Below the pieces are notes generated by a model. The model was not told the origin of the DNA and ran no database searches. It saw nothing but the letters and a program-made list of their open reading frames with translations. DNA of 16,565 bases, from the IMG/VR virus record IMGVR_UViG_2667527959_000010, positions 1-16,565 of that record; one strand, given 5' to 3'. This document shows, one piece after another, positions 1,409 through 16,195 of the stretch. The translations under genes and the position numbers were made by a program. Position 1 is the stretch's first letter. Every line of letters starts with the position of its first letter. Source of the DNA: a virus (taxonomy: Duplodnaviria; Heunggongvirae; Uroviricota; Caudoviricetes).

Positions 1409-1425
1409 ATTGCTCTAATAATTCA
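1409..1425 (+). promoter_or_regulatory. C1 repressor operator-like site (ATTGCTCTAATAATTCA)
   Basis: 14/17 match to the P1 C1 operator consensus ATTGCTCTAATAAATTT, with the first 13 positions identical. Overlaps the stop codon of the upstream ORF. Confidence 0.6.
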
Positions 1426-1436
1426 ATATTTTTAAT

Positions 1437-1464
1437 ACGTGATGTACACTCATCACGTTTTTTA
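1437..1464 (+). terminator. Rho-independent terminator-like hairpin
   Basis: Perfect 8-bp stem ACGTGATG/CATCACGT with 6-nt loop, followed by TTTTT(A)TT. Sits immediately after the phosphatase/233-aa operon. Confidence 0.55.
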
Positions 1465-1474
1465 TTAGAGCAAT
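1458..1474 (-). promoter_or_regulatory. C1 repressor operator-like site, inverted orientation
   Basis: Reverse complement reads ATTGCTCTAATAAAAAA, 14/17 to consensus. Forms an inverted pair with the 1409-1425 site and overlaps the terminator T-tract. Confidence 0.55.
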
Positions 1475-3044: not shown

Positions 3045-3551
3045 TTGAGTATTTTCAACCAACACGCACACCATGAACGTCCGTATATCGTCATAGTTGA
3101 TATTGATGGAACAATATCAGAGGCAACTGAAGACAGACTGCATTTGCTTCCGCCACCAGGTAAAGGTGCATTAACAAAGGACTGGAACGAGTTTAATCTC
3201 GCCTGTGACACTGATACTCCCATAACTCCAGTTATTGATATTGTGCGCCAGTTATATAACGTTTACACGGTCTGGTTTGTAACCGGGCGCTGTGAGATCG
3301 CAAGGGATAAAACATGAGCCTGGCTGCGAAAGTACGTAACAAACGGGGATGAGCCTTTGCTATCTATGCGTCCTGCCACCGATGACAGAAATGACGGTCC
3401 AGCAAAGATTGATCTCCTTAAGAAAATTGGTCTAAGCAAAATTGCGTTCGCGCTGGAAGATAAGATTGAAGTGGCGCGTGTTTTCAGGCGTCACGGCGTG
3501 CTTACGTTAATGGTCAGGGAGTATGAAAACGCGCTTCTTCATCAGCAATAA
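3045..3551 (+). pseudogene. HAD-superfamily phosphatase (polynucleotide 3'-phosphatase/Pnkp-like domain) interrupted by a single in-frame TGA at 3315-3317
   Basis: ORFs 3045-3317 and 3357-3551 are in the same frame, separated only by one TGA and 13 sense codons. The joined product has HAD motif I IVIVDIDGT, motif II-like WFVTGR, and a C-terminal K/DD region resembling the T4 Pnkp phosphatase domain as recalled. TTG start with strong SD GAGGAGG (3034-3040). Confidence 0.6.
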
Positions 3552-3567
3552 TTGCTCTAATAAATCT
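3551..3567 (+). promoter_or_regulatory. C1 repressor operator (ATTGCTCTAATAAATCT)
   Basis: 16/17 match to the C1 operator consensus. Overlaps the TAA stop of the phosphatase ORF and a TTGATA -35-like hexamer (3567-3572); a GAAAAT -10-like hexamer follows at 3590-3595. Confidence 0.7.
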
Positions 3568-3589
3568 TGATATTTAAAGCAGAGAAGGT

Positions 3590-3623
3590 GAAAATAAAAA
3601 CATGCCGCAAGGGGCGCGGCATG
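3590..3623 (-). terminator. Hairpin with T-tract on the minus strand (possible terminator for leftward transcripts)
   Basis: Perfect 8-bp stem CATGCCGC/GCGGCATG (3601-3623) with 7-nt loop. On the minus strand it is followed by TTTTTATTTT; on the plus strand it is not followed by a U-tract. Confidence 0.45.
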
Positions 3624-3651
3624 TATCAAATCAATCACAGGAGCTGAAGAT

Positions 3652-3738
3652 ATGAACACGGCATTCAAAATCATTATGGCCGCGATCTATTTCTGGCTGT
3701 TCTCTATCACTTTTGGCAGCATTGTCGCGCATGGGTAA
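3652..3738 (+). CDS. Candidate small hydrophobic peptide, 28 aa (MNTAFKIIMAAIYFWLFSITFGSIVAHG)
   Basis: ATG at 3652 with SD AGGAG (3639-3643) at 8-nt spacing. Product is predicted to be a single hydrophobic helix. Too short for the supplied ORF track; sits downstream of a C1-operator-overlapped promoter-like sequence. Confidence 0.35.
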   Translation: MNTAFKIIMAAIYFWLFSITFGSIVAHG

Positions 3739-3772
3739 GGGGAGTATATTAGCCATTTGGAACCCCACGGTC

Positions 3773-3802
3773 TCTTGCGGGTTTAATTAAGAACCCGCAA
3801 GA
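3773..3802. other. Stem-loop at the hsdR 3' end (11-bp stem TCTTGCGGGTT/AACCCGCAAGA, 8-nt loop)
   Basis: Perfect inverted repeat 15 bp from the hsdR stop codon. The A-run lies 3' on the plus strand and the T-run 5' on the minus strand, so it is not a canonical intrinsic terminator in either direction. Confidence 0.4.
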
Positions 3803-3817
3803 AAAATACGAATTGGG

Positions 3818-6800
3818 CTATATTTTTCCGCCTACGCCTTTAAACTTCTCAATAAACGAGACGATTTTCTGGAAAACTGCCTGTTTTTTCGTTTTATATT
3901 GCGGATTCAACGGACTAAGTTTTGGTAATGTTTCGTTTAATTCTGTGCCATTTTCGGTGGCGTATTCGCGTTTTAAAGACGTGCGAATATAGCGTTTTGC
4001 TGCATCTTCATTAAGATTTTCTTCTTTTATCAATGCTTCTGCTTCACGTTGCTGTTCGCGTTGAGCAAACGTAAAGAATGCGTCAATGATGCTGGCTTTG
4101 TCCGGTAAATCATCCAGGTTCGTTTGCTGAATAAAATCGACCACCAGGCCCTCTTTAGCACGGTTCCCTAGGCTTGAACGAATTAAGCGTTTGACCTCTT
4201 CGATCATTTCGCCCTTGCCTTTATTTTGTCTGTTGTGTTCGAAAATCAGTCCAAGGATATAATCCAGGTTTATTTCCTGAGACTTCAGCAAATCGACCTC
4301 AAAAACTACGTCATCCCAGTCAGTGGTTGATTTCTCTTTTTTCTCAGCTTCTTTCTCACGGCGCTGCCAGTCGCGAATATCGTTATAGGCAGAACGATAA
4401 TCCTGAATCTTGCGATCAGCAGGGAGACGAATTGTTTGCAATTCAGCGAGCTTTTCATCATCCACATAATGTTCTGCTTTGAATTTTTCTACTGCAACAG
4501 GATCGCTAAGATCGATTTGTTGCAGGGCTTTCAGCGTGGCAAATTCATCATAGTTTTGCAGGATGTTCTCGGTACGCAGGTATTCACCAAACAGTTTAAC
4601 GAAGTCTTTCTTCTCTTTTTCACTTTCAATACTGGTAGGGTCAGGGAACCGTTGTTCCAGTTCTGAAACTACTGTCATGAAGCCGCGTTTAGCTTCACCA
4701 GTGGCAGCATCAGTAAAGCCTTCCATATACTCTGCATAACTCTTTTCTAAAACCACATTTTTGGTATTTTTGTCACCAAACAGCGTTATGGCATCAATAG
4801 TTGAGCGTTCCAGATCCCGGAAAGTGACGATATTACCGAAGGTTTTAGTTGCATCATAAATACGGTTGGTGCGGGAAAATGCCTGCATCAAGCCGTGAAA
4901 ACGCAGGTTTTTATCGACGAATAGCGTGTTCAATATTGGAGCATCGAAGCCAGTTAAAAACATCCCCACGACAATTAACAGATCGATATCCTGATTTTTA
5001 ACCCGCTGGGCTAAATCACGATAGTAGTTCTGAAAACCGTTACTGTCGGTGCTGAAGTTAGTTTTAAAATAGCTGTTATACTCACGAATTGCAGCATCAA
5101 GAAACTCTTTAGCACTGCTGTCCATTGCGCTGGTATCAAAAGTTTCATCGGAAATTTCACCAATGGCATTTTGTTCTTCATTGGCAGCAAAGGAGAAGAT
5201 TGTCGCAATATGCAGCGGTTTATAGGTGGCCGATTTATTAGCTGCTTCCTCTTGTAACCGTTTAAACGTCGCGTAATAGGCTTTTGCAGCATCCACGCTG
5301 CTCACTGCCAACATAGCATTAAAACCTTTTGAGCCAGGGAAGGTACGGTGGGTTTTCTGGCGGAAATTATTCAGAATATATTGCGTGATTTCCTGAATAC
5401 GCATGGGATGAAGAAACGCCTGCTGATTTTCAGCCGCACTCAGTTTTTTCTCGTCAGTTTCTGTCTCTAAAGACTTAAACTGTGGCCGCACATCGTTGTA
5501 GTCCACCTTGAATTTGAGCACTTTTTCGTCACGAATCGCATCGGTAATTACATACGAATGCAATTCACGACCAAATACGCTGGCGGTTGTTTCTGAGCCT
5601 AAGGCGTTTTCCGGGAAAATAGGGGTGCCGGTAAAACCAAACTGATAATAGCGTTTGAATTTCTTCTTCAGGTTTTTCTGCGCTTCTCCAAACTGGCTGC
5701 GGTGGCATTCATCAAATATAAACACCACTTGCTGATTATATACAGGCAGGTCGCTTTCTGCTTTCATCAGGTTATTGAGTTTCTGAATAGTAGTGACGAT
5801 AATTTTGTTATCGTCCTTATCCAGATTTCGTTTAAGGCCTGCGGTATTTTCCGAGCCGTTGACGCTGTCTGGCGAAAAACGCTGATATTCCTTCATGGTC
5901 TGGTAATCGAGGTCTTTCCTGTCGACCACGAAGAAGACTTTATCAATAAAGTCCAGCTCTGTTGCCAGACGCGCGGCTTTAAAGCTGGTGAGGGTTTTAC
6001 CAGAACCGGTAGTGTGCCAGATATACCCACCGCTTTCCGGTTTTGACCAGTTCTTCGCTGTAAAGGAGCTCTTAATTTTCCACAGAATGCGCTCGGTGGC
6101 AGCAATCTGGTACGGTCGCATCACCAGTAGCGTCTGACTGCTGTCAAAAACGCTGTAGTTCACCAGAACATTAAGCAGAGTATGTTTCTGGAAAAAGGTA
6201 GCGGTAAAATCTTTGAGGTCTTTAATCAGCGTGTTGTCTGATTTCGCCCAGTTCATGGTGAAGTCAAAACTGTTTTTATCGCGCTTTGTTGTGTTGGCAA
6301 AATAACGGGTATCGGTGCCGTTAGAAATGACAAACAGTTGCAGATACTTAAACAGGGAATTTTCGCTGTTAAAACTCTCTTTACTGTAACGATGTATCTG
6401 GTTGAAAGCCTCACGAATCGCCACGCCGCGCTTTTTCAGTTCGATTTGTACCAGTGGTAAGCCATTAACCAGGATCGTGACGTCATAACGGTTAGCATGA
6501 GAACCCGTCTGTTCAAACTGCTGGATAATCTGCACCTTATTGCGCATGAGATTCTTTTTATCTATCAAATAGATGTTCTCAAGTCGCTCGTCATCAAAAA
6601 TAAAGTCGCAAATATAGTCGATATGGATTTTACGGGTCTTATCCAGAATGCCATCGCTCGGGTTGTCCAGATACTGCTCCGTGAAACGCCGCCACTCGCT
6701 GTCATTAAACACCACACCATTGAGGCTCTGAAGCTGTTCCCGAACATTGGACAGCATAGCCGACTGAGATTTTACGGATATAAATTCATAGCCCTGATTC

Positions 6801-6934
6801 CGCAGGTCCTGAATCAGTTCACGTTCCAGGTCCGATTCGCTCTGGTAGCTGTCGCCTGTTTGCTCAGCTTTGATGTACTTATCAAGGACGATAAAGTTAT
6901 TGGATTCAGCAATGGTGTGTGTTTGATGAGTCAT
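3818..6934 (-). CDS. hsdR: Type I restriction enzyme R subunit (HsdR), type IC-like
   Basis: 1038 aa. Walker A TGSGKT, DEAH-box FDECHR, and an N-terminal PD-(D/E)xK-like nuclease motif (D...IELKK). Length matches EcoR124I HsdR as recalled. SD AAGGA upstream of the ATG at 6934. Confidence 0.95.
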
Positions 6935-7055
6935 AGCGCATCCTTTGTGCCGCCTGGCAAGGGCCGGAAGGGCGTTAAGAGTGACTTCCGGCGCGTAAAA
7001 AATAGTCTATATACAGACCGGGTGTTAAGGTGGCCCGGTCGGTAGCAATGGTCAA

Positions 7056-8312
7056 TTAATTACTGACAGTTTCAGGTGTTGGGAAACTGAACAGTAAATC
7101 ACGATAGTACTCGTATTGTTTCTGGCGCAACTCGATTTCACGCGGAAGACCTTCGGTGATGGAGTTGGTCAGGGTGTCGAATTTATCGAGCAGAGCAGAT
7201 ATTCGCTCTTGTTTCTGTTTATCAGGCAATGGCACTGGTAATGTTTTTATAATATCTGCATTCAAGTTACTGACCGACCCGCTATTGATTTTACTTTCCC
7301 AATAATTTTTCACCTTTTTTGATGAAAGATAGTGATACAGATAATCAGCATTTAATTTTTCACCAAAATTGCTGATTGATGCCCATCCATCATGGATAGC
7401 TCCGGTTATCCTTAAAATATATGGTCTGCCAAAGCTCATAGAGTTAGAAATGACGAAATCACCGGGGTTCAAGATTCGCGATTTTTGGGCACCCTCTGCA
7501 GTTATTTTTTGTAAGGTTTTGTCAATGTATTTAGAGCCGGGTATAGTATCTCCGATTTTAATCCATGGGATACCATTTCCTTGTTCAGTAAGATAATTAA
7601 CAATTGGTCTGGGGGATGCCCCTCGTTGTATTTTGGCTACTTCTCCCAATGCCTTCCACTCAACCTCACCCTCATCAAAACTCAGCAATTGGTCGCGATA
7701 GTAGTTGTACTGTTTTTTACGCATGTTAAGCTCAGCGGTAAGCTCAGCGGTAAGTGCAGTAAATTTATCCAGAATCCGAACGATTTCAGACTGGATGGCA
7801 AGGGATTTTTCCGGATTATCCGGGCAAGGGATTGGGATGAGTAGTTTTGACATCAATGCATTTGAGCTTAGGTTCGGTTGTGCTCCGCCCCCGGCGAGGA
7901 TATAAATAGTCTCTGTATTTAACAATAAAAAATGGTATAAATAATTATTGTTTAGAATATTTTCTTTGGGTATGAATTTCCCAACCCGTTGGTTAAGATA
8001 ACATTTTGTTCCTTTTTTATAAATTCCTACCTTTCCTGTAGTGGCACCTGACATTGCAATCAATATATTTCCCATAGATACCTCAAAGGAGGATAAATCT
8101 TCCTTGTAATCATTTAGTGAAAAGTATTTCACCTCATCTAAGTCAACATTAAATCCATCTATATTTGTGATTCTGACTATCGGTAACCCAGTTTCTTTAA
8201 ATAAGCTGCTTTTAAATGCAAATCCATTTTTAAAATCACAAACATCCTTCAAGGGTTTCCACTCAACCTCAACCCCATCCAGCAATTTTTCCAGATAACT
8301 TAACTCGCTCAT
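7056..8312 (-). CDS. hsdS: Type I restriction-modification specificity subunit (HsdS), type IC-like
   Basis: 418 aa with two variable target-recognition regions separated by the conserved central region ...[33 protein letters not shown], and a C-terminal conserved repeat ...[36 protein letters not shown], as in the EcoR124I/EcoDXXI family. Confidence 0.95.
7730..7753 (-). repeat. Tandem 12-bp repeat (2 copies) encoding TAEL-TAEL in the HsdS central conserved region
   Basis: GCTCAGCGGTAA x2 on the plus strand, which is ACCGCTGAGCTT x2 in the coding sense. A degenerate partial third unit follows. Confidence 0.8.
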
Positions 8313-9871
8313 TTTTGCACCTCGCAGCCTTCAATTTCAGCCACAATTGCATCAATATCTTTACGCAACTGGTCGATTTTGCTGACCGTGGTTTTCAGCT
8401 CAGCATTCAGCTCACCGATATCGATAATTTCGCGGTTATCTTTCGCTTCCACATAGCTGCTCACCGACAGGTTATAGTCATTCGCGACAACGGCTTCAAA
8501 CGCGACAGATTTTGCCAGATGAGCAACATCTTCCTTGCTGGCAAATACCTGCATAATTTTTTCTATATGGGCATCGGTCAGAATGTTGTTGTTAGTCTCT
8601 TTTTTGAACAGTTCGCTGGCATCAATAAACTGAACTTTGGTATCCGTTTTATGTTTAGACAGCACCAGAATATTTACGGCAATGGTGGTGCCAAAGAACA
8701 GGTTCGGTGCGAGTGAAATCACGGTTTCGACATAGTTATTGTCGACCAGATACTGACGGATTTTCTGCTCCGCGCCGCCACGGTAAAAAATACCCGGGAA
8801 GCAGACAATCGCGGCGCGACCTTTGGCCGAAAGATAGTTCAGCGCATGTAGTACAAACGCAAAGTCAGCTTTGGATTTGGGGGCCAGAACGCCAGCCGGG
8901 GCAAAACGTTCATCGTTAATCAGCGTCGGGTCATCGCTGCCAATCCATTTCACCGAATACGGTGGGTTAGATACGATGGCGTCAAACGGTTTTTCATCTC
9001 TGAAGTGCGGCTCAGTCAGCGTATTGCCCAGCTTGATATCAAACTTGTCGTAGTTGATATTGTGCAAAAACATGTTCATACGCGCCAGGTTATAGGTCGT
9101 ATGGTTGATTTCCTGACCGAAAAAGCCTTCTTCGATGATATGGTTATCAAACTGTTTTTTCGCCTGCAACAACAGTGAGCCGGAACCCGCTGCCGGGTCG
9201 TAGATTTTGTTAACGCTGGTCTGCCCGTGCATAGCCAGTTGTGCAATCAGCTTGGAGACGTGCTGCGGTGTAAAGAACTCACCGCCTGACTTACCGGCAT
9301 TTGCCGCATAGTTAGAAATCAGGAACTCATAGGCATCACCGAACAGGTCAATCTGATGTTCGTTGAAGTCACCAAGTTTTAACCCTTCAACCCCTTTCAG
9401 AACCGCAGCCAGGCGGGCATTTTTATCTTTAACGGTGTTACCCAGGCGGTTACTGGTGGTATCGAAATCAGCAAACAAACCTTTGATGTCAGCTTCTGAA
9501 GGATAACCGTAAGCAGAACTTTCGATAGCAACGAAGATGCTGTTTAAATCTGCATTCAGTCTGTCATTAGTATTTGCTTTCGCAGCTACGTTGCAGAAAA
9601 GCTGACTGGGGTAGATGAAGTAGCCTTTAGTTTTGATGGCATCGTCTTTAATGTCATCAGTAATTACGCTGTCATCCAGTTTCGCATAACAGATACTGTC
9701 ATCACCGGCTTCAATATAGCTGGAAAAATTTTCGCTGATAAAACGGTAGAAAAGTGCGCCCAGAACGTATTGCTTAAAATCCCATCCATCGACCGAACCC
9801 CTGACATCGTTAGCAATTTGCCAGATTTGACGATGAAGCTCTGCACGTTGTTGAATACTTGTCATTTTCAT
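8309..9871 (-). CDS. hsdM: Type I restriction-modification N6-adenine DNA methyltransferase subunit (HsdM)
   Basis: 520 aa. AdoMet-binding motif [10 protein letters not shown] and catalytic motif NPPY ([10 protein letters not shown]). Its stop overlaps the hsdS start by 4 bp. N-terminus [13 protein letters not shown] matches my recollection of EcoR124I HsdM. Confidence 0.95.
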
Positions 9872-10010
9872 CCACTTATTTCAGGCTTATGTAATTGGCG
9901 GTGATTCTACAGCAACTTGGATGCTTTAGCAGTTCGGACATTAGGCTACGAATGACCTGCCTAGAGGTTTGTTAAGCCGCAAAGTGCTGGTGCTTTATGC
10001 CTGTGAAGTT

Positions 10011-11905: not shown

Positions 11906-11922
11906 ATTGCTCTAATGTATTG
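11906..11922 (+). promoter_or_regulatory. C1 operator-like site upstream of lpa (ATTGCTCTAATGTATTG)
   Basis: 13/17 match to the C1 operator consensus, first 11 positions identical. Overlaps a TTGCTA -35-like hexamer (11920-11925) spaced 16 bp from a TATTAT -10-like hexamer (11942-11947). Confidence 0.6.
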
Positions 11923-12530: not shown

Positions 12531-13724
12531 GTGACCTGGGACGATCACAAGAAGAATTTTGCTCGCCTGGCGCGAGATGGTGGTTACACCATCGCACAGT
12601 ATGCCGCCGAGTTTAATCTTAACCCTAATACCGCACGTCGTTATCTCCGTGCATTCAAAGAAGACACCGGAACAGCGGACAGCCGTAAGCCAAATAAGCC
12701 TGTCAGGAAACCACTAAAAAGCATGATCATTGATCACGCTAATGATCAACGTGCAGGTGATTACGTTGTGGCTGAAATGGCTGAAAAACAAAAAGTTAAT
12801 GCTGTTGTTAGTGCCGCAGTCGAGAACGCTAAGCGCCAAAATAAGCGCATAAATGATCGTTCTGATGATCATGACGTGATCACCCGCGCCCACCGTACCT
12901 TACGTGATCGCCTGGAACGCGACACCCTGGATGATGATGGTGAACGCTTTGAATTCGAAGCTGGCGATTACCTGATAGATAACGTTGAAGCGCGGAAGGC
13001 CGCGCGCGCTATGTTGCGTCGGTCCGGGGCCGATGTTCTGGAAACCACTCTTCTGGAAAAGTCTCTTTCTCATCTCCTTATGCTGGAGAACGCCAGGGAT
13101 ACGTGTATTCGCCTGGTGCAGGAAATGCGCGATCAGCAAAAAGACGATGATGAAGGTACTCCGCCTGAATACCGTATCGCGAGCATGCTAAACAGCTGTT
13201 CCGCGCAGATAAGCAGCCTGATCAACACCATTTACAGCATCCGGAATAACTATCGAAAAGAAAGCCGGGAGGCGGAAAAGCACGCTTTATCTATGGGGCA
13301 AGCTGGCATTGTTAAGCTGGCATACGAACGAAAGCGTGAAAATAACTGGTCAGTGCTGGAAGCGGCTGAATTCATCGAGGCGCATGGAGGAAAAGTGCCG
13401 CCCCTGATGCTGGAGCAAATCAAAGCCGATCTGCGTGCTCCTAAGACCAATACCGATGATGAGGAAAACCAAACAGCATCTGGCGCTCCATCACTTGAAG
13501 ATCTGGATAAAATCGCGCGAGAACGGGCCGCCAGCCGCCGCGCTGATGCGGCATTGTGGATTGAGCATCGTAGAGAAGAAATTGCCGATATCGTCGATAC
13601 AGGTGGTTATGGTGATGTCGATGCGGAAGGCATATCAAACGAAGCATGGCTTGAACAGGATCTGGACGAAGACGAGGAGGAAGACGAAGAAGTTACCCGC
13701 AAACTGTACGGGGATGATGATTAA
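12531..13724 (+). CDS. pacA: Terminase small / pac-recognition subunit PacA
   Basis: 397 aa, GTG start with SD GGAAG. N-terminus [28 protein letters not shown] matches P1 PacA as recalled. Acidic C-terminal tail. Contains the pac site. Confidence 0.9.
12724..12882 (+). other. pac packaging site: clustered TGATCA/G hexamers carrying Dam GATC sites, inside pacA
   Basis: Left cluster TGATCA at 12724, 12731 and 12743, plus a degenerate TGATTA at about 12758. Right cluster TGATCG at 12854, TGATCA at 12866 and 12877. Architecture matches the P1 pac description (4 left + 3 right hexamers). Confidence 0.75.
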
Positions 13725-15208
13725 TGGCCAGAAGTTGCGTAACGGACCCACGTTGGCGCGAGCTGGTGGCGCTATATCGTTATGACTGGATTGCGGCCGC
13801 TGATGTGTTGTTTGGGAAGACACCAACCTGGCAGCAGGATGAGATCATTGAGTCCACGCAGCAGGACGGCAGTTGGACAAGTGTGACCTCCGGCCATGGT
13901 ACTGGTAAATCGGATATGACGAGTATCATTGCAATACTCTTCATCATGTTTTTCCCCGGCGCTCGCGTCATTCTGGTCGCTAACAAAAGACAGCAAGTCC
14001 TTGATGGTATTTTCAAATACATAAAGAGCAATTGGGCTACTGCTGTTAGCAGATTCCCGTGGTTGTCGAAGTATTTCATTCTTACAGAAACGTCTTTTTT
14101 TGAGGTGACTGGCAAGGGTGTTTGGACAATATTGATAAAGTCCTGTCGCCCCGGAAATGAGGAGGCGTTGGCTGGTGAACACGCCGATCATCTCTTGTAT
14201 ATCATCGACGAAGCGTCGGGTGTGAGTGATAAAGCATTCAGTGTGATAACAGGTGCGCTGACCGGTAAGGATAACCGTATTCTGCTTCTTTCCCAGCCTA
14301 CGCGACCTTCAGGCTATTTCTACGATTCACACCACAGACTAGCTATTCGCCCGGGAAATCCTGATGGATTGTTTACTGCGATAATACTGAATAGTGAAGA
14401 ATCTCCGCTTGTAGATGCAAAATTTATACGAGCAAAACTTGCGGAGTATGGCGGTCGTGATAACCCCATGTACATGATCAAAGTACGTGGTGAATTTCCC
14501 AAATCTCAAGATGGCTTTCTTCTTGGTCGTGATGAGGTTGAGCGGGCGACGCGGCGAAAGGTCAAGATTGCCAAAGGATGGGGCTGGGTTGCATGTGTTG
14601 ACGTTGCTGGTGGCACAGGACGAGATAAGTCCGTTATTAATATCATGATGGTGTCCGGCCAGCGAAATAAACGCCGTGTAATCAACTATCGTATGCTGGA
14701 ATACACAGACGTTACAGAAACGCAGTTAGCCGCCAAGATTTTCGCAGAATGTAACCCAGAACGGTTCCCGAACATAACCATAGCTATTGATGGCGATGGC
14801 TTGGGGAAATCGACGGCTGATCTAATGTACGAACGCTATGGCATTACCGTCCAGCGTATCCGCTGGGGTAAAAAGATGCACAGCCGTGAAGATAAAAGCC
14901 TTTATTTCGATATGCGCGCTTTCGCGAATATTCAGGCGGCAGAAGCTGTAAAATCAGGGCGTATGAGGCTTGATAAGGGGGCTGCGACTATAGAGGAAGC
15001 ATCAAAGATACCGGTAGGGATAAATTCCGCAGGTCAATGGAAGGTGATGTCAAAGGAAGATATGAAGAAAAAACTCAACCTGCACTCACCGGACCATTGG
15101 GATACATATTGTTTCGCTATGTTGGCGAACTATGTTCCCCAAGATGAAGTGCTTAGCGTCGAAGACGAAGCGCAGGTTGATGAAGCTCTGGCATGGCTTA
15201 ATGAATAA
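13724..15208 (+). CDS. pacB: Terminase large subunit PacB
   Basis: 494 aa. Start overlaps the pacA stop (TAATG). Walker A-like GHGTGKS and Walker B-like [10 protein letters not shown]. Confidence 0.9.
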
Positions 15209-15232: not shown

Positions 15233-16084
15233 CTATTGCGCGCTTTCGGGGTTGTCGTTTACTGGCTGCCCCTTCTTAGTTTTGCGGCTGCGCGTAACTG
15301 ATGCGGCTGATTTGACCTTTTTCTCTTCGCGAGTGATGGCAATTTGTTTTTTTACATTTTCAATATCTGCCAGGCGATATATTTTTGCTTGCGGCCAGCG
15401 GTCGCAGATGATCGGTTCTATGGAGTCATAAAGGCTAAATTTTGCTTTTTCGAATTCACCGTTGATGATAATTCCATCACGGAGAGTTTCATCGCAGATA
15501 AACACGCCACACAGTGGCACATGGTAACTCACTGATTTACCATCATTGTAGTTAGGGCTACTGGAAATGTAGTGGACGCGCAGCATTGTTTCGCTAAAGC
15601 CGTGTACGCGCATACGGAATTTTTCATCCTCTGGGTACTGCTTCATTAGCTCTTTTGTTGCTTCCAGGTTCTCTATGTATTTCGCACTGTGCTCATTGAT
15701 CCCCGCGCTTTTTTGGATGCGAATGTCCTTATCAATCAGATGAATAATGCGGCCAGCGGTCATGTTGACGCTGTTCACAGCTTCTGTCTGATAAGTTGTA
15801 ACCTTGCGAACACCGCGAAGGATGTTAGGCACTGGATATAAAATAGTCTTTGGGATATTGAGGTCTGGGTACTGTTCCAGTTCCCGCGCCATTAAAGTCC
15901 ATTTATCAATTTCAGCCTGAATGCTGTCAGTTTCTTTGAACGGTAGAACGACAACCGGGCGTACAGGACGACCGTCGCTGGCTGTATCAACGTGTTGGGC
16001 GCGTGCAACAGCTTTTTTTAGAAAGAGATCCCTGAAGCTGACGAACTCCTGGTACAGTTGTTCGCCGTAGACATAATTTATCAT
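15233..16084 (-). CDS. c1: C1 repressor of lysis (primary immunity repressor)
   Basis: 283 aa, MINYVYGEQLYQEFVSFRDLFLKKAVARAQHVD..., matching P1 C1 as recalled. Convergent with pacB as in P1. Confidence 0.95.
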   Translation of the reverse strand: MINYVYGEQLYQEFVSFRDLFLKKAVARAQHVDTASDGRPVRPVVVLPFKETDSIQAEIDKWTLMARELEQYPDLNIPKTILYPVPNILRGVRKVTTYQTEAVNSVNMTAGRIIHLIDKDIRIQKSAGINEHSAKYIENLEATKELMKQYPEDEKFRMRVHGFSETMLRVHYISSSPNYNDGKSVSYHVPLCGVFICDETLRDGIIINGEFEKAKFSLYDSIEPIICDRWPQAKIYRLADIENVKKQIAITREEKKVKSAASVTRSRKTKKGQPVNDNPESAQ

Positions 16085-16178: not shown

Positions 16179-16195
16179 AGATTTATTAGTGCATT
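16179..16195 (-). promoter_or_regulatory. C1 operator-like site between coi and c1 (Op99-like)
   Basis: Plus strand AGATTTATTAGTGCATT is 14/17 to the reverse-complement consensus AAATTTATTAGAGCAAT. Position corresponds to the autoregulatory operators upstream of c1 in P1. Confidence 0.45.

Follow-up and report, generated by a model that had tools for sequence, protein, structure and literature searches.

The C1-controlled leader of the phage P1 pmgT operon as the probable source of a region beside an inverted type IC hsd cassette

The region at 3551-3817 of the window, a stretch of viral DNA of 16,565 nucleotides analysed over its whole length, is most probably (a probability of about 0.8) the C1-controlled Op88 (OpmgT)-PpmgT site of phage P1 together with the 5' leader of the pmgT operon, which would have been kept as pmgT-humD gave way to an inverted type IC hsdRSM cassette of the EcoR124 family. 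On the same sequence comparison, the host element is very probably a P1-like plasmid prophage. Both the P1 regulatory site and the junction of phage DNA with the restriction cassette are already documented, and their re-identification leaves little that is mysterious. The first-pass annotation had stated that these 250 bp are left unexplained by the standard gene set; the P1 annotation contradicts this, as it names the operator and promoters and records the identity with hsd loci. All sequence features that had been described were found within 1-2 nt, and the overall interpretation placed on them was partly supported. What keeps its value is a very widespread 28-codon ORF, the first frame after a C1-controlled promoter, which is either annotated as a 44-aa form or absent from the records.

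Correspondence with phage P1 and the restriction cassette

Window positions 3301-3742 were found to be 94-95% identical to P1 84043-84482 by pairwise alignment and megablast. At the matching stretch, the P1 reference carries the operator OpmgT (formerly Op88) and the promoters P1pmgT and P2pmgT, and the GenBank record notes that the stretch is identical to sequence lying downstream of the hsd loci of EcoDXXI and R124/3. Immediately upstream, the plus strand encodes a homolog of pap (3'-phosphatase) at 3045-3551, recognised from the P1 pap annotation and alignment. In the window an in-frame stop, TGA at 3315-3317 in place of the CGA of P1, splits this gene into ORFs 3045-3317 and 3357-3551 (AAACACGAGCC in the P1 reference versus AAACATGAGCC in the window).

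The operator lies on the plus strand at 3551-3567, and its first base overlaps the pap stop codon. Its sequence, ATTGCTCTAATAAATCT, is identical to that of the annotated P1 operator at 84293-84309, which the P1 record lists as a C1 protein_bind feature. It matches 16 of the 17 positions of the asymmetric 17-bp sequence ATTGCTCTAATAAATTT, which we take to be the C1 consensus, so that the near-consensus C1 operator of the first-pass annotation was recovered with a single mismatch. C1-like sites with at most three mismatches number six in the window, against 0.12 expected by chance. The orthologous position was confirmed as well: the operator stands directly after the pap stop codon and upstream of the pmgT leader, as in P1. 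Moreover, the cognate repressor is encoded within the same element, by a 283-aa ORF at 15233-16084 on the minus strand that PGAP names 'phage repressor protein C1' in a near-identical record. C1 is thus the trans-acting regulator that, judging from these sequences, would be expected to bind 3551-3567 in the lysogen.

A sigma-70 promoter-like site, TTGATA-N17-GAAAAT, adjoins the operator at 3567-3595 on the plus strand, scoring 9/12 in a consensus scan and having base 3567 in common with the operator, which bears out the overlap noted earlier. It is the equivalent of P1pmgT. The equivalent of P2pmgT has its -35 element TTGCTC at 3553-3558, within the operator. Both P1pmgT and P2pmgT are predicted promoters, called from the consensus. 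The P1 version of the promoter-like site, with a -35 element of TTGATT instead of TTGATA, scored under the threshold of the same scan.

Taken over the whole Op88 (OpmgT)-pmgT leader of P1 (84293-84487, NC_005856), the two sequences share the 17-bp operator immediately following the pap stop, the arrangement of the promoters, a hairpin, the Shine-Dalgarno (SD) sequence and the 28-codon ORF, with 94-95% identity over 200 bp. They differ in the loop of the hairpin, to which the window adds two G, and in what follows, since P1 continues into pmgT, pmgU and pmgV, whereas the window continues into the inverted hsd cassette.

The left junction falls between 3742 and 3743. P1 homology ends at 3742, corresponding to P1 84482, which is 5 nt before the pmgT ATG and is the position at which the misc_features of the P1 record end. 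From junction alignments, the hsdR-hsdS-hsdM cassette occupies 3743-9971 on the minus strand and takes the place of P1 84483-87969 (pmgT-humD). At the right junction, blastn aligned window position 9972 with P1 87970, and the P1 record marks 87969 as the point from which it matches the sequence upstream of the EcoDXXI hsd locus. Both junctions are therefore already marked in the P1 GenBank record: P1 homology resumes 3' of hsdR and upstream of hsdM at the EcoDXXI and R124/3 points (84482, and 87970 versus the annotated 87969). The genes that were replaced correspond to 'variable region 8' in a list for P1-like phage-plasmids (PMC9603915), and the pmgT-humD genes are non-essential in P1 (PMC10695390).

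Within the cassette, hsdR (3818-6934, minus strand) was assigned to the EcoR124 family (type IC) from PGAP annotation and a match to EcoR124I HsdR (PDB 2w00), to which it is essentially identical, with 1038 of 1038 aa aligned at 2283 bits. The P1-homologous flanks are likewise shared with the EcoR124I, EcoDXXI and EcoprrI type IC loci. Going by its title, a 1997 report by Tyndall et al. (Mol Microbiol 23:729) concerns such P1-homologous DNA flanking type IC hsd loci. The difference lies in the setting, as the cassette here is carried by what seems to be a complete P1-like IncY plasmid prophage (c1, pac, lpa, phd-doc), whereas the others are found on a conjugative plasmid or a chromosome. R124-like IncF plasmids differ further. 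Of the 274 PLSDB records that fall in the 80-90% identity band, one was inspected; in it, an IS1 has taken away all sequence to the left of nt 8 of the small ORF, and with it the promoter, the SD and the start codon, with hsd retained. Hence the unit is dispensable for the restriction system.

The 28-codon ORF and the hairpins around it

The ORF lies on the plus strand at 3652-3738, convergent with the 3' end of hsdR and, as the first-pass annotation had placed it, right at the insertion junction. It is preceded by the SD sequence AGGAG at 3639-3643, 8 nt upstream of the ATG at 3652, and would encode a peptide with one TM-like hydrophobic segment, MNTAFKIIMAAIYFWLFSITFGSIVAHG, whose 19-aa TM-like window reaches a Kyte-Doolittle value of 2.08. 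The strong SD and the hydrophobic ORF that had been described were therefore both recovered. The window holds 162 ORFs of 20-50 codons that begin with ATG; only this one combines a strong SD with a TM-like 19-aa window, and shuffled windows gave a mean of 0.04 such ORFs.

P1 carries the same 28-codon frame intact, with G instead of S at residue 23, and with a stop codon 9 nt before pmgT, within the pmgT ribosome-binding site. The ORF is thus the unnamed first cistron upstream of pmgT in P1, and it is absent by name from the P1 reference. This arrangement suggests that it leads the operon as a translationally coupled cistron. It had been asked whether the ORF might be a truncated remnant of a longer gene. 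The ORF itself is not a shortened piece of a longer gene; it is the transcription unit that is a truncated remnant, namely of the P1 pmgT operon. Other records annotate an extended 44-aa form as 'membrane protein' or 'hypothetical protein'. This longer frame is unlikely to be a real gene, as it would start within the hairpin upstream of the ORF and is out of frame in the window because of the 2-nt loop insertion.

When the 44-aa P1-frame form of the peptide was used as the query, the homologs were confined to near-identical E. coli entries, and none was found outside near-identical P1-like DNA. Searches of Pfam, NCBIfam and PHROG with the ORF gave no match below E = 0.09, a literature search for the peptide sequence found no match, and the P1 transcriptome and CRISPRi literature does not mention the ORF. 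A search against P1-like phages and toxin families thus returned the P1 match at 94-95% identity and no toxin family. No small hydrophobic ORF was found upstream of distant pmgT homologs from six other Enterobacterales genera, and the ORF is therefore not a conserved partner of pmgT. With its 28 aa, one TM-like segment, strong SD and, in P1, a stop within the next ribosome-binding site, it resembles small single-pass membrane proteins and coupled upstream cistrons, for which the KdpF, AcrZ and MgtS types serve as comparators; it differs from these in being confined to P1-like DNA.

Two hairpins accompany the ORF. The first, at 3600-3624 (stem arms 3600-3608 and 3616-3624), was picked up by a terminator scan and is also found in P1. 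It had been described as a perfect 8-bp hairpin; the hairpin is indeed present, with a GC-rich stem of 9 bp rather than 8. Read on the minus strand, the stem is followed by TTTTTATTTT (3599-3590), and with a 9-10 bp stem, 6 GC pairs and this tail it corresponds to the definition of a Rho-independent terminator, the sole terminator-like site that the scan found in 3400-4000. On the plus strand the same hairpin lies at or beside the 5' end predicted for the PpmgT transcript. The segment varies little (2 of 23 sites variable in the 71 loci analysed), and its variants, being scarce and close to the loop, do not reveal on which strand it functions. Searching Rfam at E <= 10 gave only sub-threshold matches on the minus strand (Hrs13 at 21 bits versus a gathering score of 52; GcvB at 18 versus 42), and both were discarded, as the terminator hairpin drives them and the scores are far under gathering.

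The second hairpin, at 3773-3802, belongs to the hsd cassette and is separated by 15 nt from the stop codon of hsdR. Its perfect 11-bp stem, which had been noticed there (3773-3783 and 3792-3802), is closed by an 8-nt loop. A T-tract is absent on both strands, so it is not a canonical terminator. The hairpin is kept among the 23 hsd-type loci, which gave no compensatory change and one uncompensated disruption.

As the only canonical minus-strand terminator 3' of hsdR lies past the ORF, an hsdR transcript that ends there would be antisense to the ORF, in agreement with the T-tract strand and the antisense readthrough proposed for the hairpin at 3601-3623. The hsdR mRNA would then probably carry a 3' UTR of about 220 nt antisense to the ORF. 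In the opposite direction, the scan placed no plus-strand terminator after the ORF, and hence the ORF transcript would be expected to run antisense into the 3' end of hsdR.

Sequence variation across P1-like loci

Variation was examined in 109 leader-anchored loci, in which the ORF was located through the motif GGAGCTGA, which contains the SD and is present in 109/109. The ORF is intact in 107 of them, without any frameshift or nonsense change, and the indels (+2 nt and -4 nt) are confined to the adjacent leader, with none in the ORF. In the closely related sample of 19 distinct ORF variants, 8 are synonymous and 11 nonsynonymous, over 18.3 and 65.7 sites respectively (p = 0.038), pointing to a weak deficit of amino-acid changes and, as far as such sequences can suggest, to weak purifying selection. 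Diversity at codon position 3 was 0.023 versus 0.0021 at positions 1 and 2, approximately 11-fold higher.

The synonymous sites of codons 1-20 are nearly frozen, with a pi of 0.002, whereas no 20-codon window of pap falls below 0.040; protein-coding constraint cannot explain this. Hitch-hiking at a recombination border may be a simple cause. Over the SD and most of the ORF, pi is about 0.003, compared with 0.03-0.09 for pap and 0.1-0.36 for pmgT, and diversity climbs gradually with distance upstream of the left junction. The right border at phd-doc is low in diversity too (13 loci). The same leader precedes at least three downstream contents: the P1 pmgT, a pmgT that is only 44% identical, and the hsd cassette. 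As a side observation, the ORF lies in the least variable 150 nt between two far more variable genes.

These patterns bear on the alternative that the ORF is non-functional and that 3600-3742 is kept as RNA or DNA only, either as the pmgT mRNA leader and translation-initiation region or as a homology anchor, with hitch-hiking, at the left border of an often-swapped variable region. The valley of pi over the SD and most of the ORF relative to pap and pmgT, the frozen synonymous sites, the gradual rise upstream of the junction, the similarly low diversity at phd-doc, the multiple contents after one leader and the absence of ORF homologs beyond P1-like DNA would all fit this explanation. On the other hand, AGGAG-N8-ATG is kept and neither a frameshift nor a stop occurs in 107 of the 109 loci, yet the adjacent leader tolerates indels; in addition, variation follows the position-3 periodicity, nonsynonymous variants are depleted, and an SD joined to a hydrophobic helix is rarely expected in shuffled windows. 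We regard such a non-coding role as a serious though doubtful alternative, and the most plausible of those considered.

Possible expression and roles of the ORF

Under the pmgT-leader identification, events in the lysogen may be sketched from the P1 annotation. C1 bound to 3551-3567 would block both predicted promoters. Once C1 is inactivated, transcription would start near 3601-3604, and the 9-bp hairpin at the start of the mRNA could stabilise its 5' end. The strong SD, the ATG, the preservation of the ORF and the weak purifying selection suggest that the 28-aa single-helix membrane peptide would then be translated, the small ORF being presumably the only cistron of the pmgT operon left in the window. 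If the peptide is made, a classic model phage would gain a small membrane protein in its early lytic programme, and the annotation would be corrected in hundreds of plasmid records.

In its most extended form, this proposal would make the ORF a candidate C1-repressed small membrane protein of P1-like phage-plasmids, omitted from the P1 annotation, whose frozen sequence stems from RNA-level coupling with the convergent hsdR transcript, such that C1 inactivation both expresses the peptide and damps type IC restriction during lytic growth. We consider this full combination a long shot.

A related suggestion is that the C1-gated promoter, once orphaned, was co-opted to brake restriction upon induction, in that antisense transcription into hsdR lowers HsdR, through interference or an RNA duplex, while unmodified phage DNA replicates. 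The convergent geometry, lacking a plus-strand terminator between the ORF and hsdR, would permit it, and each of the 23 distinct hsd-type P1-like loci examined keeps the operator, promoter and ORF intact. Nevertheless, the suggestion is an architectural one. The same promoter serves pmgT in P1, and its presence here therefore needs no new function. Past the ORF stop, Rho would probably terminate the untranslated RNA early. Moreover, hsdR extends over 3.1 kb with its own promoter far from the collision zone, and the brake promoter is missing in the R124-like plasmids. Such a brake is thus quite improbable.

The resemblance to a type I toxin-antitoxin locus pointed out by the first-pass annotation fared worse. 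It would require that the 28-aa peptide be a membrane toxin and that its mRNA be neutralised by an antisense transcript ending at the minus-strand terminator, which could be a dedicated sRNA or the hsdR 3' UTR. The peptide is comparable in size and hydrophobicity to toxins of the TisB, ShoB and Ibs classes, the ORF is gated by a repressor in the manner of the LexA-gated tisB and dinQ, a canonical minus-strand terminator lies just upstream of it, and the synonymous-site conservation of its 5' half would fit a constraint from RNA-RNA pairing. With the known type I systems (TisB, ShoB, IbsC, DinQ, Hok/Ldr), the locus would thus share an ORF of fewer than 30 codons encoding one helix, a stress- or lysis-linked repressor and a possible antisense overlap; it differs from them in that no dedicated antisense promoter, no structured or SD-occluding mRNA and no family match was found. 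A consensus scan, which weak or non-consensus sites could escape, found no minus-strand promoter-like site in 3400-4000 of the window or in the corresponding P1 stretch. In P1 the ORF and the hairpin are present, but neither hsdR nor any other convergent gene is there to supply readthrough. The plus-strand mRNA folds in an ordinary way (MFE -38.6 kcal/mol versus a shuffle mean of -37.5, z = -0.31), the 5' hairpin being its only stable fold and the SD not being stably sequestered, and neither the toxin families of Pfam and NCBIfam nor, at gathering score, the antitoxin families of Rfam gave a match. Because no antisense promoter and no structured mRNA of the toxin type were found, and because R124-like plasmids do without the ORF start and the whole control region, this explanation is unsupported and very unlikely.

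DNA homologous to the region occurs in 894 of 5426 complete E. coli genomes (approximately 16%), some copies of which are truncated by IS1 or hold hsdR only.

Region identity and the hsd cassette junction

The window is a P1-like plasmid prophage with pmgS, pap, phd-doc, lpa, pacAB and c1. Its 700 nt at 3301-4000 are 100% identical to plasmids of E. coli AW1.7, and one of these plasmids, pAW1.7_1 (typed IncY), is near-identical across the whole window. When compared with phage P1 (NC_005856), window 3301-3742 matched P1 84043-84482 at ~95% identity. The P1 homology stops at 3742, 5 nt before the pmgT ATG, and is back at 9972 (P1 87970), just upstream of the phd promoter. Hence, a 6.2-kb hsd cassette (3743-9971, minus strand) replaces the 3.5-kb pmgT-humD segment, and the small ORF does lie at the insertion junction, as the first-pass annotation had proposed. 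All 1038 residues of the cassette's HsdR (3818-6934, minus strand) aligned to EcoR124I HsdR (PDB 2w00; 2283 bits), so the system is type IC. The pmgT-humD segment is 'variable region 8' of P1-like phage-plasmids (PMC9603915), and a CRISPRi screen of P1 found all its genes non-essential (PMC10695390).

The same annotation had stated that these 250 bp have no explanation in the standard gene set, which turned out to be wrong. The P1 record has the operator at 84293-84309 ('OpmgT; corresponds to former Op88'), with P2pmgT and P1pmgT as predicted sigma-70 promoters that overlap it or lie directly next to it, and places the start of pmgT at 84488. Three misc_features of the record cover the identity of this stretch to EcoDXXI and R124/3: DNA downstream of the EcoDXXI hsd locus shares 96% identity with P1 84263-84482, and DNA downstream of hsdR on R124/3 shares 98% with 84399-84482. 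From 87969 on, the record gives identity to the upstream flank of the EcoDXXI hsd locus. With such explicit annotation the region is therefore not unexplained; the locus is a documented P1 regulatory region, and the cassette junction where it sits is known too. To judge by its title, the 1997 work of Tyndall et al. reportedly concerns P1-homologous DNA flanking type IC hsd loci. It should be pointed out that EcoR124-family loci are not all P1-flanked. A chromosomal type IC hsdR (H182, NZ_CP148378.1 chromosome 428465-428537) matches the window only from 3828 on; thus the 3773-3802 stem-loop and the P1-derived flank are absent from that copy.

Both the near-consensus C1 operator and the promoter-like sequence noticed at first were found on reading 3301-4100 and in independent scans. 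The operator, ATTGCTCTAATAAATCT (3551-3567, plus strand), has 1 mismatch to what we take to be the 17-bp C1 consensus, and the promoter-like site TTGATA-N17-GAAAAT occupies 3567-3595 (plus strand). Six sites with 3 or fewer mismatches to the consensus occur in the window, where 0.12 were expected from shuffles. The other five have 3 mismatches each: 1409-1425(+), 1458-1474(-), 11906-11922(+), 14420-14436(-) and 16179-16195(-). Judging from their positions, 1409-1425 and 1458-1474 are the counterparts of P1 OpmgRa/OpmgRb (Op86a/b), upstream of pmgR; those close to lpa and c1 probably match P1 operators already known, and 14420-14436 falls inside pacB.

A conserved small ORF in a low-diversity stretch

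The strong Shine-Dalgarno sequence and the 28-codon ORF with a single hydrophobic stretch are present as described: AGGAG lies at 3639-3643 (plus strand), 8 nt upstream of the ATG at 3652, and the ORF (3652-3738, plus strand) encodes MNTAFKIIMAAIYFWLFSITFGSIVAHG. The window has 162 ATG ORFs of 20-50 codons, and this one alone combines a strong Shine-Dalgarno sequence with a TM-like 19-residue window (mean 0.04 such ORFs per shuffled window). The 28-codon frame is also in P1, differing by one amino acid and one synonymous change; there, the TAA sits 9 nt upstream of the pmgT ATG, within the G-rich pmgT ribosome-binding site. The P1 ORF has the look of a first cistron, so far without a name, in the operon under Op88 control. 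A 44-aa form in other records, named 'membrane protein' in SJ46 and 'hypothetical protein' by PGAP (WP_024191728, WP_001312275), begins at an ATG within the upstream hairpin 1. The loop of this hairpin (3609-3615) reads AAGGGGC in the window vs AAGGC in P1, a +2 form common to 10 of 109 related loci. Since the two extra G put the upstream ATG (3602) out of frame, the 44-aa CDS cannot be made in the window, and what all share is the 28-codon core alone.

Conservation was assessed in IMG/VR loci fetched via a leader anchor lying outside the small ORF, of which 109 had sufficient sequence. The frame was intact in 107, and no frameshift or nonsense codon was seen in any of the 109. In the two disrupted loci (contigs L081 and L122), codon 19 is followed by inserted or replaced sequence, identical foreign DNA in both, and the C-terminus becomes ...SINKKTLIVSIV. 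Meanwhile, the adjacent 58-nt leader has indels in the same set of loci (+2 nt in 10, -4 nt in 2). Distinct variants comprised 8 synonymous and 11 nonsynonymous changes over 18.3 and 65.7 sites (dN/dS ~0.4; one-sided binomial p = 0.038), and third-position diversity was ~11-fold above that of first and second positions. These signals, drawn from few changes among close relatives, favour a translated ORF. The small ORF is real as a conserved reading frame and plausibly translated, and the P1 reference gives it no name.

A search of 5.8 billion proteins with the 44-aa form gave near-identical E. coli sequences only, and no comparable ORF lies upstream of distant homologs of pmgT from six further genera. 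Of 5426 complete E. coli genomes, 894 contain DNA matching the 361-nt query (3540-3900), mostly plasmid-borne, with the intact ORF not in every match. One locus (L113, Escherichia sp. MOD1-EC7003, NZ_PTRE01000134.1, 2357-3046) combines the P1 leader with a small ORF identical to P1 in amino acids; its downstream pmgT is just 44% identical to P1 PmgT past the first ~25 nt, which shows that the allele was replaced right after the conserved island.

Over 51 distinct P1-type loci (L001 among them), nucleotide diversity was ~0.003 from the Shine-Dalgarno sequence to about codon 24 (window ~3634-3723), synonymous sites included, and 0.03-0.09 in the flanking pap and 0.1-0.36 in pmgT. At the third positions of codons 1-20, diversity was 0.002, below that of every 20-codon pap window (0 of 149 as low). 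Peptide-level selection cannot be the source of this low third-position diversity. The valley may reflect hitch-hiking along the edge of a region that is often exchanged; the gradual climb upstream from the junction agrees with this, as does phd-doc at the opposite border, where diversity is likewise low (13 loci only). An RNA-level constraint is also conceivable.

Hairpins, convergent transcription and the toxin-antitoxin reading

Hairpin 1 (3600-3608 / 3616-3624), first described as a hairpin with a minus-strand T-tract downstream of the promoter, has a 9-bp perfect stem followed on the minus strand by TTTTTATTTT, and is the sole terminator-like site reported by the scan in 3400-4000. The stem-loop reported at the hsdR stop, hairpin 2 (3773-3783 / 3792-3802), likewise has its 11-bp perfect stem, but no T-tract adjoins it on either strand, so the terminator implied there is not canonical. 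A third inverted repeat, GAAAAATA / TATTTTTC (3801-3808 / 3821-3828, 8 bp, 12-nt spacer), spans the hsdR stop codon.

The sequence comparisons establish only what the region is, where its junctions lie and how conserved it is; activity of the promoter, the transcript termini, translation and any role for the peptide are inferred. In the most likely mechanism, C1, encoded at 15233-16084, would bind 3551-3567 and repress the putative promoter(s). Upon induction, an mRNA would start at ~3601-3604 with hairpin 1 at its 5' end and be translated into a 28-aa membrane peptide. In P1, ribosomes ending at the TAA would pass to pmgT; in the window, the transcript would run antisense into hsdR, because the scan found no plus-strand terminator between the two. 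Transcription of hsdR would most plausibly stop at hairpin 1, leaving a ~220-nt 3' UTR antisense to the small ORF. That C1 inactivation damps hsdR through convergent transcription is a speculation suggested by the convergent geometry.

In R124-like IncF plasmids, an IS1 end adjoins nt 8-9 of the small ORF (L003, CP114346.1, ~3950-4081; one plasmid inspected, with 274 PLSDB records in the same 80-90% peptide identity band). The IS1 deletes operator, promoter, hairpin 1, Shine-Dalgarno sequence and start codon, while hsdR and hsdS are still annotated intact; hence, the unit is dispensable for the restriction system. These plasmids presumably are without c1, and, speculatively, selection might have favoured losing a promoter left unrepressed.

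The suggested reading as a type I toxin-antitoxin locus is very improbable. No minus-strand promoter-like site was found in window 3400-4000 or its P1 equivalent, the plus-strand RNA of leader and small ORF was no more structured than shuffles (z = -0.31), and RNA folding left the Shine-Dalgarno sequence without stable occlusion. Searches of Pfam, NCBIfam and PHROG gave zero family matches for the small ORF, and Rfam gave nothing but far sub-threshold matches produced by the terminator hairpin. As P1 has the small ORF and the hairpin but no convergent gene, the proposed antisense readthrough is at most a secondary consequence of cassette orientation.

Two other genes of the window showed further differences. 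The 168-codon pap (3045-3551) is broken into ORFs of 90 aa and 64 aa by an in-frame TGA at 3315-3317, the P1 codon being CGA (Arg); no CDS is listed at pap in a near-identical PGAP-annotated record, as would fit a pseudogene. pacB (13724-15208) is a single intact 494-aa ORF in the window and is split in the PGAP annotation of the otherwise near-identical plasmid NZ_CP072540.1 (13724-14992 and 15046-15207) with downstream features shifted 1 nt; that record therefore differs from the window by ~1 nt within pacB.
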